DNA of 61,460 nt from a virus (taxonomy: Duplodnaviria; Caudoviricetes), in IMG/VR virus record IMGVR_UViG_3300025674_000039, positions 1-61,460 of that record; one strand, given 5' to 3'. A program made the position numbers and the translations under genes. Under the pieces are notes generated by a model, which saw nothing but the letters and a program-made list of their open reading frames with translations, was not told where the DNA came from and made no database searches. This document shows, in pieces, positions 3,520 to 36,436 of the stretch. The first letter of the stretch is position 1; every line of letters starts with the position of its first letter.

Positions 3520-3870
3520 ATGGCAAATGCAGTTGAAACTCTAGAAAAAACAGAGCAGATTCAAATGGAACACTGGACTCAATTAGAAAGAGATGAATCT
3601 CCCAAAAGGTACGGATGCACTATCATGATTTCTAATGGGTCTTGGGAACAAGTTTGTACGACTGATGCACCATATGATGCAAAAATCGTTACATACTATG
3701 TTGACGGTCAAAAATGCCATGATTTGACTAGAAGTCAGAAAGAAGTACGTATCTTTGATATGTACTATGATAAGTTTGGTAAGAATCTCAAAAGCATTGA
3801 ATTTGGTTATGGTAAGGCAAATCCAAAGACCTGGGGATACGAAGCGCCAAAGGATAAAAAGAAGAAATAA
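3520..3870 (+). CDS. hypothetical cyanophage protein
   Basis: 116-aa ORF (IFDMYYDKFG...GYGKANPKTWG). Confidence 0.75.
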   Translation: MANAVETLEKTEQIQMEHWTQLERDESPKRYGCTIMISNGSWEQVCTTDAPYDAKIVTYYVDGQKCHDLTRSQKEVRIFDMYYDKFGKNLKSIEFGYGKANPKTWGYEAPKDKKKK

Positions 3871-3880
3871 ATCTTAAAAT

Positions 3881-3896
3881 TGTATCATAAGTTACA
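3881..3896. promoter_or_regulatory. NtcA-type binding site
   Basis: TGTA-TCATAAGT-TACA, a perfect GTA-N8-TAC with flanking T/A. Confidence 0.7.
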
Positions 3897-3903
3897 AAAC
3901 TAC

Positions 3904-3932
3904 TTGCATATATAGACCATAGGAGTTATAAT
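3904..3932 (+). promoter_or_regulatory. sigma70-type promoter
   Basis: TTGCAT (3904-3909), 17 nt spacer, TATAAT (3927-3932); predicted TSS about 3939. Confidence 0.75.
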
Positions 3933-3951
3933 ACTCTAGTACGTTCATCTC

Positions 3952-4152
3952 ATGCTCAGTATCTTACTGGCATTGACCTTAGCCCATCATGCAGACGGCA
4001 GCCCCTACGGGTGGCATATGTCGTGTGAAAGGTTTTTACAAAAACGAATTGAAATCCTAATGGATGACAATTTAGATAGACGATCTAAATATAATCTGAT
4101 AGGTTATTTTAGATCTAAAGTAGAAGGTCAATGTAATCAGACATTGACATGA
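3952..4152 (+). CDS. small protein embedded in riboswitch-like unit 1 (hydrophobic N-terminus, 2 Cys)
   Basis: 66-aa ORF; ATG and TGA both lie in the P2 stem TCTCATG/CATGAGA. Confidence 0.7.
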   Translation: MLSILLALTLAHHADGSPYGWHMSCERFLQKRIEILMDDNLDRRSKYNLIGYFRSKVEGQCNQTLT

Positions 4153-4187
4153 GACGCAAGTAAGTCGCGGAACGGAGCGTTCATCCC

Positions 4188-4349
4188 ATGATTGATCTTT
4201 TACTCTATGTCTCTATTGCCTGTCAAGATGCTGCCGATATGATCGGTCGTGTCAAGGCAAATGAATCCATGAGTAAAATTGTCAGAGCAGAGATTGTTGA
4301 AACTTTAAAAGAAGCAACACCTCAGTGTAAGTGGGACGCAAACGACTGA
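4188..4349 (+). CDS. small protein embedded in riboswitch-like unit 2 (53 aa, 2 Cys)
   Basis: Hand translation MIDLLLYVSIACQDAADMIGRVKANESMSKIVRAEIVETLKEATPQCKWDAND; GGAG at 4174-4177. Confidence 0.7.
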   Translation: MIDLLLYVSIACQDAADMIGRVKANESMSKIVRAEIVETLKEATPQCKWDAND

Positions 4350-4417
4350 AGGAACGGGGAAACGGATCCTGCGAAAGCAGAGAAGGTTAACTTTCCATTC
4401 TATTCAGGTAACGACAA

Positions 4418-4582
4418 ATGAACACACTTTCTTTAATCAAGAAGCAAATCGAAAAGCAAGCAGCTCTTCACGATGCTCAAATTATGATGACCACCTATCG
4501 TGGCGTCAAGTATGAGTGTCAGCAAGGAACTGATGAAGTGCATGGCACTTTCTGCTATCGCGGTCGTACTTACGTTAAGTGA
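4418..4582 (+). CDS. DUF4278 family protein (GifB/IF17-related)
   Basis: Hand translation MNTLSLIKKQIEKQAALHDAQIMMTTYRGVKYE...FCYRGRTYVK; two YRG motifs; AGGT SD. Confidence 0.8.
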   Translation: MNTLSLIKKQIEKQAALHDAQIMMTTYRGVKYECQQGTDEVHGTFCYRGRTYVK

Positions 4583-4589
4583 GGACGCC

Positions 4590-4685
4590 ATGCAAGCACT
4601 ACAAGTAGCAACATCAGTTTCTGTTTTAAGTATCGCTTTTCTAGGTATTCTTTACGGTGAATTAAACTTCTTATACAAGAGGTGA
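4590..4685 (+). CDS. 31-aa membrane peptide
   Basis: GAGG SD; MQALQVATSVSVLSIAFLGILYGELNFLYKR. Confidence 0.6.
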   Translation: MQALQVATSVSVLSIAFLGILYGELNFLYKR

Positions 4686-4688
4686 GAC

Positions 4689-4844
4689 ATGCTCAAAATC
4701 AAGATCTCATATGATCTTCCTGAGTATGATTCCGTGAAACATGATCCAGAAAAAGTATTTGCTTTTTTAACATATCGTGGAATTAATTATGCAAAATTGG
4801 TAAATCTCAAATCAAGGTCAATTTTGTCTCCACGAATTAAATGA
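4689..4844 (+). CDS. second YRG-motif (DUF4278-like) small protein
   Basis: Hand translation MLKIKISYDLPEYDSVKHDPEKVFAFLTYRGINYAK... (51 aa); GAGG SD. Confidence 0.65.
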   Translation: MLKIKISYDLPEYDSVKHDPEKVFAFLTYRGINYAKLVNLKSRSILSPRIK

Positions 4845-4868
4845 AGGGGTTGTACCCCTTCTTTTTTT
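4843..4868 (+). terminator. rho-independent terminator overlapping the next promoter
   Basis: GAAGGGGT-TGT-ACCCCTTC-T7; overlaps TTGTAC(4850)-17-TATGAT(4873) with an extended TG. Confidence 0.8.
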
Positions 4869-5071: not shown

Positions 5072-5233
5072 ATGAGTAGAGCAAAAGATCTTATTAAGTT
5101 GCTTGAGCGTTTGATCAAGCAAGATCATCTTTATGATGCCGAAAGAATCAAAGAGATGAAAGCGCAACTTCGTGCTGTTAAAGAACAGGTCGAAGAAATG
5201 GAAAGGAACAATTCTAAAGGATTTGGTAAATGA
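5072..5233 (+). CDS. hypothetical coiled-coil protein (53 aa)
   Basis: Hand translation MSRAKDLIKLLERLIKQDHLY...SKGFGK; ATGA overlap with thyX. Confidence 0.75.
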   Translation: MSRAKDLIKLLERLIKQDHLYDAERIKEMKAQLRAVKEQVEEMERNNSKGFGK

Positions 5234-5883
5234 ACGTAAAACTGATCAGTGTAACTCCGGATGCGGAGAAGACCATGGCATATATTGCCCGCGTTTCAAA
5301 TCCAAATAATCAGGAAAACCCCAACTATGCTAAACTGTTGGGTTATTGTATCAAGCACAACCACTGGTCTGTGTTTGAACAGAGTTTTATGACTCTGGAG
5401 ATTGAAACGACACGTGGTCTGGCAGCTCAGATTTTGCGTCACCGTTCGTTTACATATCAAGAGTTTTCTCAACGCTATGCTGATTCTTCCTTACTCTCAG
5501 AGACGATCCCGCTCCCAGAACTTCGCCGTCAGGATACCAAGAATCGTCAGAATTCTATTGACGACATTGATCCTTTCGTCAAGCAGGAGTTCGAGATCAA
5601 AATGAGGAAGCATTTTGATGAAGCAATGGTTCTTTATCAATCAATGCTTGATATAGGTGTAGCAAAAGAGTGTGCTCGCTTTGTGCTTCCTCTGGCAACT
5701 CCTACTCGCTTGTATATGAGTGGTTCCTGCCGTTCTTGGATTCATTATATCGCACTCCGAGAAAAATCAGGAACTCAAAAAGAGCATATGGATATTGCCA
5801 AAGAATGTAAAAAAATCTTTGTAGAGCAGTTTCCAACTTGTGCCGAAGCACTTGGAGGTTTAGATGTAGATTGGGTATTGTAA
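5230..5883 (+). CDS. thyX: flavin-dependent thymidylate synthase
   Basis: HWSVFEQ; RHRSFTYQEFSQRY (RHRx7S signature); AKECARFVLP. Confidence 0.97.
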   Translation: MNVKLISVTPDAEKTMAYIARVSNPNNQENPNYAKLLGYCIKHNHWSVFEQSFMTLEIETTRGLAAQILRHRSFTYQEFSQRYADSSLLSETIPLPELRRQDTKNRQNSIDDIDPFVKQEFEIKMRKHFDEAMVLYQSMLDIGVAKECARFVLPLATPTRLYMSGSCRSWIHYIALREKSGTQKEHMDIAKECKKIFVEQFPTCAEALGGLDVDWVL

Positions 5884-36209: not shown

Positions 36210-36281
36210 GGGAATGTCGCCTAAAGGTAAAGGCCCTCTGCTTATAACGGAGTGATCTGGGTTCAAGTCCCAGCATTCCTA
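36210..36281 (+). tRNA. tRNA-Ile(UAU)
   Basis: Acceptor GGGAATG/CATTCCT; anticodon arm CTCTG-CTTATAA-CGGAG; TTCAAGT T-loop; no encoded CCA. Confidence 0.9.
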
Positions 36282-36284
36282 TTC

Positions 36285-36357
36285 GCAGGTCTAGCAATTT
36301 GGTAAATGCAGCGTTCTCATAAAGCGCCTAAAAAGAGTTCGATTCTCTTGACCTGCA
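36285..36357 (+). tRNA. tRNA with CAU anticodon (elongator Met or Ile2)
   Basis: GCAGGTC/GACCTGC; GCGTT-CTCATAA-AGCGC; lacks initiator features. Confidence 0.88.
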
Positions 36358-36362
36358 CCTAC

Positions 36363-36436
36363 GCCCGAGTGACCCAGCGGAATGAGGTTCTCGACTTAAA
36401 ATCGAGCAGTCGCGGGTTCGAATCCCGCCTCGGGTA
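36363..36436 (+). tRNA. tRNA-Leu(UAA) with short variable loop
   Basis: GCCCGAG/CTCGGGT; CTCGA-CTTAAAA-TCGAG; GCGGG-TTCGAAT-CCCGC. Confidence 0.9.

Follow-up and report, generated by a model that had tools for sequence, protein, structure and literature searches.

The DNA analysed here (the window, 61,460 nt), judged from its sequence a fragment of a T4-like cyanomyophage, carries two successive units that each have a core like that of the glutamine-I (glnA-type) aptamer, with a small open reading frame (ORF) in the loop of helix P2, and neither unit has a P3 hairpin of its own. How could two such units sense glutamine, and which of their strands pair with which? A sequence-only reading had proposed that the two build one P3 and E-loop between them as a long-range pseudoknot. 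Its premises hold: AGUA-AGUCG is present at 4159-4167 and CGACU-GAA at 4343-4350, AGUCG and CGACU are exact reverse complements, just 6 nt (AGUCGC) separate AAGUA from the first GGAACG (4169-74) in unit 1, and just 6 nt (ACGACU) separate CGCAA from GAAGGAACG (4348-56) in unit 2. The flanks are those of the E-loop in the crystallised glutamine-I construct, (N)AAGUA-A / U-GAAG (PMC5393176), and the TGA stop (4347-49) of the ORF at 4188..4349 falls inside the P3/E-loop element, as had also been pointed out. The shared helix itself stands, since it pairs, covaries and is the sole complete P3/E-loop of the locus, but the picture of side-by-side aptamers tied together by a pseudoknot does not. We read ~3940-4357 instead as a single composite sensor of glutamine, with one aptamer lying inside the other, at the 5' end of an early cyanomyophage transcript, and put the probability of this reading at roughly 0.7.

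Anatomy of the element

All features below lie on the plus strand. Unit 1 starts at 3942 and reads CGUUC-A-UCUCAUG, ORF1, CAUGAGA-CGCAAGUA-AGUCG-C-GGAACG-GAG; unit 2 reads CGUUC-A-UCCCA, ORF2, UGGGA-CGCAAA-CGACU-GAAG-GAACG-G and ends at 4357. The glutamine-I (glnA) aptamer, RF01739, has been solved as 5DDP/5DDO (PMC5393176, PMC6698751), and the outer unit resembles it in having all consensus elements in order, CGUUC-A-P2-CGN-AAGUA-P3-GAAG-GAACG-N', with P1, P2, the J2/3 CGN-AAGUA and the GAAG before the P1 3' strand all in place. It differs in that P3 is not a hairpin and its far end opens into a second aptamer, and in that P2 carries a 201-nt ORF in the window.

The outer aptamer would accordingly be a canonical three-way junction of the glutamine-I type. 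Its P1 would pair the first CGUUC (a1, 3942..3946) with GAACG (b2, 4352..4356), an assignment made from linchpin covariation for a1 and from sequence, Rfam alignment and folding for b2; CGUUCA is found at this upstream position in 112 of 114 loci among the matches listed, the other two loci being too short. Its P2 would pair UCUCAUG (3948..3954), which holds the ATG of ORF1, with its exact complement CAUGAGA (4148..4154), which by sequence and the ORF list holds the ORF1 TGA, and the base pairs of this helix covary in compact homologues (helix 2 of the alignment). J2/3, CGC-AAGUA at 4155..4162, fits the Rfam consensus CGGAAGUA; within this CGCAAGUA segment, G4156 is the predicted ligand-site G, C4157 is the linchpin base N1 and AGUA is the 5' half of the E-loop. 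In the shared helix, AGUCG (P3a, 4163..4167) would be the 5' strand and pair with CGACU (P3b, 4343..4347), both strands being placed by sequence and covariation, and GAAG (4348..4351), recognised from sequence, holds the 3' half of the AGUA/GAA E-loop. P3 is thus flanked by its E-loop, 4159-67 with 4343-50, and what closes it is a second junction and no loop. The linchpin pair C4157-G4357 would complete the outer unit, with G4357 (X2) assigned as partner by covariation.

Having no terminal loop, P3 would open at its far end into a second three-way junction that is a circular permutation of the same aptamer. Here GGAACG (b1, 4169..4174) would pair through 4170-74 with CGUUC (a2, 4178..4182) to form an inner P1 hairpin with the loop GAG (4175..4177), whose first base G4175 is the linchpin base X1; the basis is N2-X1 covariation and folding for b1, and sequence, folding and RNAalifold for a2. 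The inner P2 would join UCCCA (4184..4188), which overlaps the ATG of ORF2, to its complement UGGGA (4332..4336), found by sequence, and this helix also covaries in homologues (helix 7 of the alignment). The inner J2/3, CGC-AAA at 4337..4342, lacks GUA and hence an E-loop, and its C4339 is the linchpin base N2, the putative partner of G4175. For its third helix the inner junction would use the opposite end of the shared P3, where there is no E-loop.

The shared helix in homologues

Homologous loci were collected in a first scan of viral contigs with the pattern AAGUA, 3-14 nt, GGAACG, 1-10 nt, CGUUCA, which gave at least 120 stretches; it fixes GGAACG and CGUUCA at the unit junction and so samples only loci with exactly those strands. 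The at least 124 pattern matches comprise these 120 viral stretches, three phage loci and the window, and a second GAAGGAACG or AAAGGAACG follows within 460 nt in 114 of the 124 matches listed. Among the other ten matches listed, four are cut by the locus end and six are seemingly unrelated.

The sequence-only reading had named covariation of the two 5-mers as a check, and the two segments do stay complementary. Across the 114 loci among the matches listed, the segments that follow AAGUA and precede RAAGG, respectively, occur in 35 sequence combinations that are complementary in the anchored register, with helix lengths of 5, 6 or 8 bp. The 5-bp class, to which the window belongs, has all five positions paired in 46 of 46 loci among the matches listed and is nearly constant there, the variation amounting to a single double change (AGUCA/UGACU) and three wobble changes. 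In the 6-bp class the strands are GGACGG and CCGCCC. More variation is seen in the 8-bp class (60 loci among the matches listed), where the outermost pair is A-U, G-C or G.U, the innermost is U-A in 34, A-U in 8, G-C in 12 and U.G in 3, and positions 3 and 6 are mostly C.A and A.C mismatches. When partners were shuffled among loci, the observed 636 paired cells (shuffled, 601.6 +/- 3.5) were reached in 0 of 2000 shuffles. An alignment of 32 distinct compact loci (A2) points the same way: its pair 34-99 is AU in 23, GC in 5, GU in 3 and other in 1, its pair 42-90 is GC in 9, UA in 6 and AU in 5, and its covariation score was reached in 0 of 500 shuffles.

Could the complementarity be a by-product of ORF2 coding, or chance, with no helix formed? 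P3b and the J2/3 before it do encode the last ORF2 residues and the stop codon. Yet the pairing is kept in 43 loci without ORF2 among the matches listed, and across helix classes that differ in sequence. A 5-nt Watson-Crick match in the one register fixed by both E-loop halves is expected by chance at about 4^-5 = 0.001, and in a control on bacterial and archaeal genomes a downstream RAAGGAACG was found in 1 of at least 120 chance matches to the junction pattern. We give this explanation next to no credence and take the P3 pairing between the two units, as the covariation indicates, to be real. A within-unit mini-hairpin in the 8-bp class (AG-CCGA-CU) was also considered and rejected: U, A or G at position 8 would break such a hairpin, and it is the cross-unit partner that compensates.

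Linchpin pairs and the topology of the two units

A shared P3 leaves two ways of joining the P1 strands. All four are invariant (CGUUC, GGAACG), so that partners cannot be read from their covariation directly, and we used the linchpin pair instead. In solved aptamers this pair joins the third base of the J2/3 CGN to the base 3' of GGAACG, as C19:G41 in glutamine-II and as a long-range equivalent in glutamine-I (PMC6698751), and it has covariation support in Rfam (PMC12510878). If the two aptamers stood side by side (P1 = a1:b1 and a2:b2), interlocked by a pseudoknotted P3/E-loop, each linchpin should lie within its own unit; if one is nested in the other, the linchpins should run between units.

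They run between units. The unit-1 N and the base after the unit-2 GGAACG (N1-X2) form a Watson-Crick pair in 114 of 114 loci among the matches listed (92 C-G, 22 G-C), and the unit-2 N and the base after the unit-1 GGAACG (N2-X1) do so in 112 of 114 (110 C-G, 2 G-C), the two remaining loci having one G.U and one C.A. Same-unit linchpins would be Watson-Crick in 92 of 114 (with 19 G.G) and 93 of 114 (with 20 C.C) of the same matches listed, and such G.G and C.C mismatches argue against a linchpin within each unit. In A2 the cross-unit pairs hold in 32/32 and 32/32 and the same-unit pairs in 24/32 and 24/32, and one locus, L070, fits the cross-unit assignment alone, since neither of its same-unit pairs matches while its cross-unit pairs are both Watson-Crick. 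In the window all four linchpin bases are C or G, and either assignment would pair.

The nested assignment thus rests on two single linchpin pairs together with the geometry of the solved aptamers. J2/3 lies in the groove (PMC6698751), and for the outer J2/3 that place is presumably the helix containing a1. P2 and one A hold J2/3 close to the first CGUUC, and the linchpin partner of J2/3 directly follows the second GGAACG, so that these two strands are the expected partners in one P1. That leaves the first GGAACG and the second CGUUC, which on this analysis would form a hairpin around a loop of 3-4 nt; indeed, of the 114 loci among the matches listed, 75 have a linker of 3 nt between these two strands and 34 have one of 4 nt. 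In an inner P1 hairpin with a 3-nt loop the first loop base would also have to pair with N2, a possible steric obstacle to the nested fold. The earlier long-range pseudoknot helix therefore has to be given up, because the linchpin covaries across units and not within them, and the only crossing contacts left are the two single linchpin pairs. How often the linchpin changed is a separate matter. The 22 G-C outer-linchpin loci among the matches listed mostly have one common expression platform, and independent events may be few, with at least two arguable; both linchpin states are found with the same downstream protein types, which implies either more than one switch or exchange that kept the pair.

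The interlocked arrangement predicts the same P3 and the same number of P1 pairs, since a1 = a2 and b1 = b2; on class-B loci, L018 for example, Rfam gives two adjacent matches (38.6 and 39.6 bits); and glutamine doublets have been described as tandem units (PMC9481103, PMC5066625). Beyond the linchpin mismatches and L070, the J2/3 geometry (PMC6698751) tells against it in that the linchpin partner would be placed next to b2. Tandems that really are arranged side by side provide a further contrast. They form a class of their own in the same viral collection: a second scan requiring the full GAAGGAACG in the first unit gave 120 stretches, of which 106 were parsed as two units and 99 of these 106 are true side-by-side tandems, 93 with own P3 hairpins in both units and 6 with an own 2-bp hairpin. 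The two units of these tandems are separated by 6-10 nt, those of 109 of the 114 nested loci among the matches listed by 3-4 nt, and each tandem unit needs a complete P3/E-loop, for which the window's units have 6 nt available each. We consider the interlocked arrangement very unlikely and prefer the nested fold, with P1 strands swapped between units.

Is the inner junction a second glutamine site?

Both junctions retain all the nucleotides seen to contact glutamine in solved structures, so two glutamine sites joined by one helix would be expected. A nested fold could also bind glutamine at the outer aptamer only, the inner junction serving as a P3 cap or as an expression platform in which the Shine-Dalgarno site and start codon of ORF2 are masked. 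It would fit this alternative that the inner junction has no E-loop, AAA and C replacing AAGUA and GAAG, that the GGAG loop occurs only where ORF2 is present, and that tandem glutamine aptamers, by a second-hand report, lack cooperativity (PMC5066625). However, the inner CGUUCA, GGAACG and CGN are kept in 114 of 114 loci among the matches listed, with or without ORF2, the inner linchpin has flipped to G-C twice with both sides changed, and glutamine-II binds glutamine without an E-loop (PMC6698751). Moreover, in eight loci (L123 and seven from the second scan, these seven with linkers of 3-4 nt) the shared 8-bp helix is flanked on both sides by E-loop halves, giving the inner unit a full E-loop as well; a permuted inner aptamer that enters P3 from its far end would predict this. 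Outer-only binding seems to us unlikely, and two sites the better reading of the nested fold.

Rfam models and folding

No glutamine family is found by Rfam in the window, whether at the gathering threshold (35 bits for RF01739, 33 bits for RF01704) or at E<=10; the glutamine-I score of at least 35 bits is not reached, and RF01704 aligns only a 9-nt fragment at 4.7 bits. The ORFs inserted in the P2 loops probably account for this miss, which appears to be a false negative and not an absence. In ORF-free compact homologues the outer aptamer scores 41-43.6 bits against RF01739, which aligns four of them (L032, L046, L063, L017) as a single aptamer, first CGUUC to second GGAACG, and accommodates the second unit in the P3 loop, as 38-39 nt of inserted sequence. 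Second units of homologues score 25.9-32.8 bits against RF01704, in which GGAACG lies in a 3' hairpin loop; the strand order of the inner unit is the reverse, and 33 bits is not attained.

Folding agrees in most respects. The unconstrained minimum free energy structure of 3940-4360 contains a1:b2, both P2 helices, 4 bp of P3 and the b1:a2 hairpin (z = -4.57), and RNAalifold on the 32 homologues of A2 returns the P1 helices a1:b2 and b1:a2, with P3 left out of the consensus. Two further places in the window with related motifs, 8017/8387 and 34320 (CGUUCA, GAAGGAACG), were rejected, being inside coding sequence with the other motifs absent.

Reading frames in and after the element

ORF1 (66 aa, phrog_6471; 3952..4152) lies wholly in the outer P2 loop, and ORF2 (53 aa, phrog_504; 4188..4349) lies in the inner P2 loop, with its last five codons and stop read from P2, J2/3 and P3b. 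The downstream gene, ORF3 (54 aa, phrog_545; 4418..4582), has two YRGxxY motifs and is presumably the gene under control. The PHROG families of these ORFs are of unknown function. ORF3 is weakly similar to DUF4278 (E = 7e-4, below cutoff), a domain common to the glutamine synthetase inactivating factor IF17 (PMC6212724), and a small YRGxxY protein is the first downstream ORF in most of the loci whose downstream sequence is long enough (89 of 114 among the matches listed).

The inserts come and go between loci. Among the 114 matches listed, 33 have a short outer and a short inner P2, 54 have a short outer P2 and ORF2, 10 have ORF1 and a short inner P2, 15 have both ORFs and 2 are of undetermined type. 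In the metatranscriptome contigs described below, joints such as that of 4186 to 4334, with a short hairpin loop between, reveal co-occurring variants without ORF2. Where frames are present, their ends coincide with structural strands: among the matches listed, 64 of 68 ORF2-type frames stop at a UGA or UAA whose U is the final base of P3b and whose other two bases open the E-loop strand, and 13 of 24 ORF1-type frames stop in the 3' strand of P2. Seven more of those 24 are open at the end of the stretch read; their ends in '..GRK' imply, from the motif reading, the UAA of AAG-UAA as next codon. Among the matches listed, 35 of the 71 loci that have ORF2 show a GAG(N) inner loop, and none of the 43 that lack ORF2 does. 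In the window this GAG together with G4174 gives GGAG, ten bases before the ORF2 start, which is likely the Shine-Dalgarno site of ORF2.

Transcription and expression platform

A TATAAT hexamer resembling a -10 box, read by eye, lies at 3927..3932 (it is absent from the consensus scan and has no -35), and would place the transcript start near 3940. At the other end, a terminator scan found an intrinsic terminator at 4843..4868, an 8-bp stem followed by seven T. Contigs of four metatranscriptome runs cover ~3961-4830 at a depth of 22-55, with 3.6-6 upstream and 5-14 downstream, and are 4-10 times deeper from ~3961 than over 3646-3917, figures to be read with the fact that RNA libraries can hold DNA. 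The RNA-library contigs end at 4828-4833 in three of the four runs and at 4781 in the fourth (X5), and depth drops after 4840. We take this depth as a weak hint in support of the transcript boundaries.

Between the sensor and ORF3, the ORF3 leader holds a GNRA hairpin, CUGC-GAAA-GCAG at 4369..4380, which shows a compensatory CAGC..GCUG in three phages and may be part of a candidate expression platform. No convincing anti-Shine-Dalgarno pairing was found in the ORF3 leader of the window. A CUCUUU/AAGGAG pair is clear only in the clade with C after the second GGAACG, where it parallels the ON mechanism proposed for gifB (PMC6212724).

Distribution in cyanophages

The 801 bases around the element match 371 phage records, nearly all of them Synechococcus or Prochlorococcus phages, and the RNA was inspected in three of these. 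The locus is flanked by nrdB and talC in syn9 and S-BM1, and only small hypothetical proteins are annotated there in the matching phage records (gp196-gp198 in syn9). The first unit of S-BM1 has an ordinary P2 hairpin and scores 29 bits against RF01739 and 28.9 bits against RF01704. As in the window, ORF inserts may hide this cyanophage RNA from covariance-model searches. Two glutamine aptamers in two phage genomes is the count of McCown 2017 (PMC5473149), and glutamine sensing in cyanophages appears to be far commoner than reported.

Comparison with known amino-acid sensors

Tandem glutamine riboswitches, as doublets and triplets, were reportedly described by Ames and Breaker in 2011. Their existence has been known since 2010-2011 (PMC9481103, PMC5066625, PMC2864571), and a later count gives 157 doublets and 4 triplets, called pseudo-cooperative (Sherlock 2022, PMC9481103); none of the first-scan loci among the matches listed is a triplet. 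According to Ruff 2016, tandem glutamine aptamers lie a few nucleotides apart, are non-cooperative in vitro (second-hand) and bring no identified benefit (PMC5066625). The element described here is like them in that its two units, separated by a few nucleotides, lie ahead of small genes of cyanobacterial type. It differs in that their units are treated in those papers as independent, whereas here each is incomplete alone, P3 is shared and the P1 strands are swapped.

The inner unit recalls glutamine-II (Downstream-peptide, RF01704, 6QN3) in its CGUUCA-hairpin-CGC, its missing E-loop and its C:G linchpin. In glutamine-II, however, GGAACG stands 3' of CGUUC in a second hairpin loop, whereas in the inner unit it stands 5' of CGUUC with a 3-4 nt loop between. 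Strands of glutamine-II can come from separate molecules, for the crystal shows strand exchange between two of them and a two-piece form binds glutamine (PMC6698751).

The inner unit and the outer unit also invite comparison with glycine sensors. Tandem glycine aptamers are complete, stand side by side and dock through tertiary contacts, with no shared helix and neither aptamer permuted. They are similar to the present element in that two homologous amino-acid aptamers are in contact and serve one expression platform (PMC5066625). No description of a shared P3 or of a nested fold was found in the riboswitch literature searched; Ames and Breaker 2011 and the supplement of Weinberg 2010 lie outside that search, and a prior description is possible.

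A probable sensor that is also coding sequence

We infer ligand binding at both sites, coupling through P3 and the direction of regulation. A glutamine-stabilised fold would hide the start of ORF1 and both the start and the Shine-Dalgarno site of ORF2, and, as in the cyanobacterial gifB switch, the folded state would change ribosome access to the DUF4278-like ORF3. Conversely, ribosomes on ORF1 or ORF2 would melt P2, P3 and the E-loop. More tentatively, and with some doubt on our part, the locus could be a natural aptamer within an aptamer in which the outer site closes only around a folded inner site, translation and sensing are mutually exclusive, and the three cistrons are set in opposite directions by the nitrogen status of the host. 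The start codons, Shine-Dalgarno site and stop codons of the P2-loop ORFs would then be parts of the sensor in many cyanophages.

The nested, strand-swapped fold, if true, would explain why the units of many such doublets look incomplete and why they are spaced by 3-4 nt. It would widen the known repertoire by a naturally occurring, circularly permuted aptamer, and it offers a concrete structure in which coupling between two ligand sites can be tested.

Reading frames nested in the aptamers

In the predicted two-unit glutamine sensor of the window and in homologous loci, the P2 loops of the aptamers are filled exactly by small ORFs of 49-68 aa (in the window ORF1, 3952-4152, in the outer loop and ORF2, 4188-4349, in the inner one). 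These ORFs place their ATG within the stem, 3-5 nt 3' of CGUUCA, and their stop codon either on the other side of that stem or where P3b meets the E-loop, and their products share a hydrophobic N-terminus and two conserved cysteines. Either P2 can house the same ORF cassette: ORF1 of one homologous locus (L039) is closely similar to ORF2 of another (L010). Of the 114 two-unit loci among the matches listed, 35 of the 71 with ORF2 and none of the 43 without it have a GAG(N) loop in the inner P1 hairpin (window 4174-4177), which makes a GGAG.

The P3 helix shared by the two units varies among the matches listed. A third doublet architecture, found at L123, L248, L270, L277, L356, L363, L309, and L355, has an 8-bp P3 common to its two units, AAGUA/GAAG E-loop halves at each end of that helix, and a linker of 3-4 nt. 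Across the 60 listed loci of the 8-bp P3 class, helix positions 3 and 6 are almost always C.A and A.C, conserved mismatches that form a symmetric pair.

Transcription unit and downstream leader

A -10-like TATAAT (window 3927-3932) and a strong intrinsic terminator (4843-4868) flank a unit of ~920 nt, within which metatranscriptome contig depth is greater than outside, with the proviso that RNA-library contigs can hold DNA. In four runs, such contigs skip from position 4178 or 4186 to 4332 or 4334, in some cases by way of a short UCUUCGGA-type loop; these joined contigs derive from co-occurring relatives without ORF2. The same transcription unit carries a second small ORF (4689-4844; YRGINY motif, phrog_6192), for which comparison with DUF4278 gave E = 0.21. 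Elsewhere in the window lie three adjacent tRNA genes (36210-36436) and a 217-aa ORF (5230-5883) containing RHRSFTYQEFSQRY, a motif suggesting that the product may be a flavin-dependent thymidylate synthase (ThyX).

The leader of the downstream gene ORF3 contains a CUGC-GAAA-GCAG hairpin (window 4369-4380) that belongs to a ~30-nt insert found in some clades only. In syn9, S-SCSM2R, and S-BM1 the hairpin stem reads CAGC..GCUG, the change on one strand being compensated on the other. Among the matches listed, 22 loci with G in the unit-1 CGN (the J2/3 motif whose N is the linchpin base) have CUCUUU 3' of the second GGAACG, ~16 nt upstream of AAGGAG, and the first base of this CUCUUU is the linchpin partner. 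CUCUUU and AAGGAG could plausibly serve as an anti-SD/SD pair in these 22 loci.
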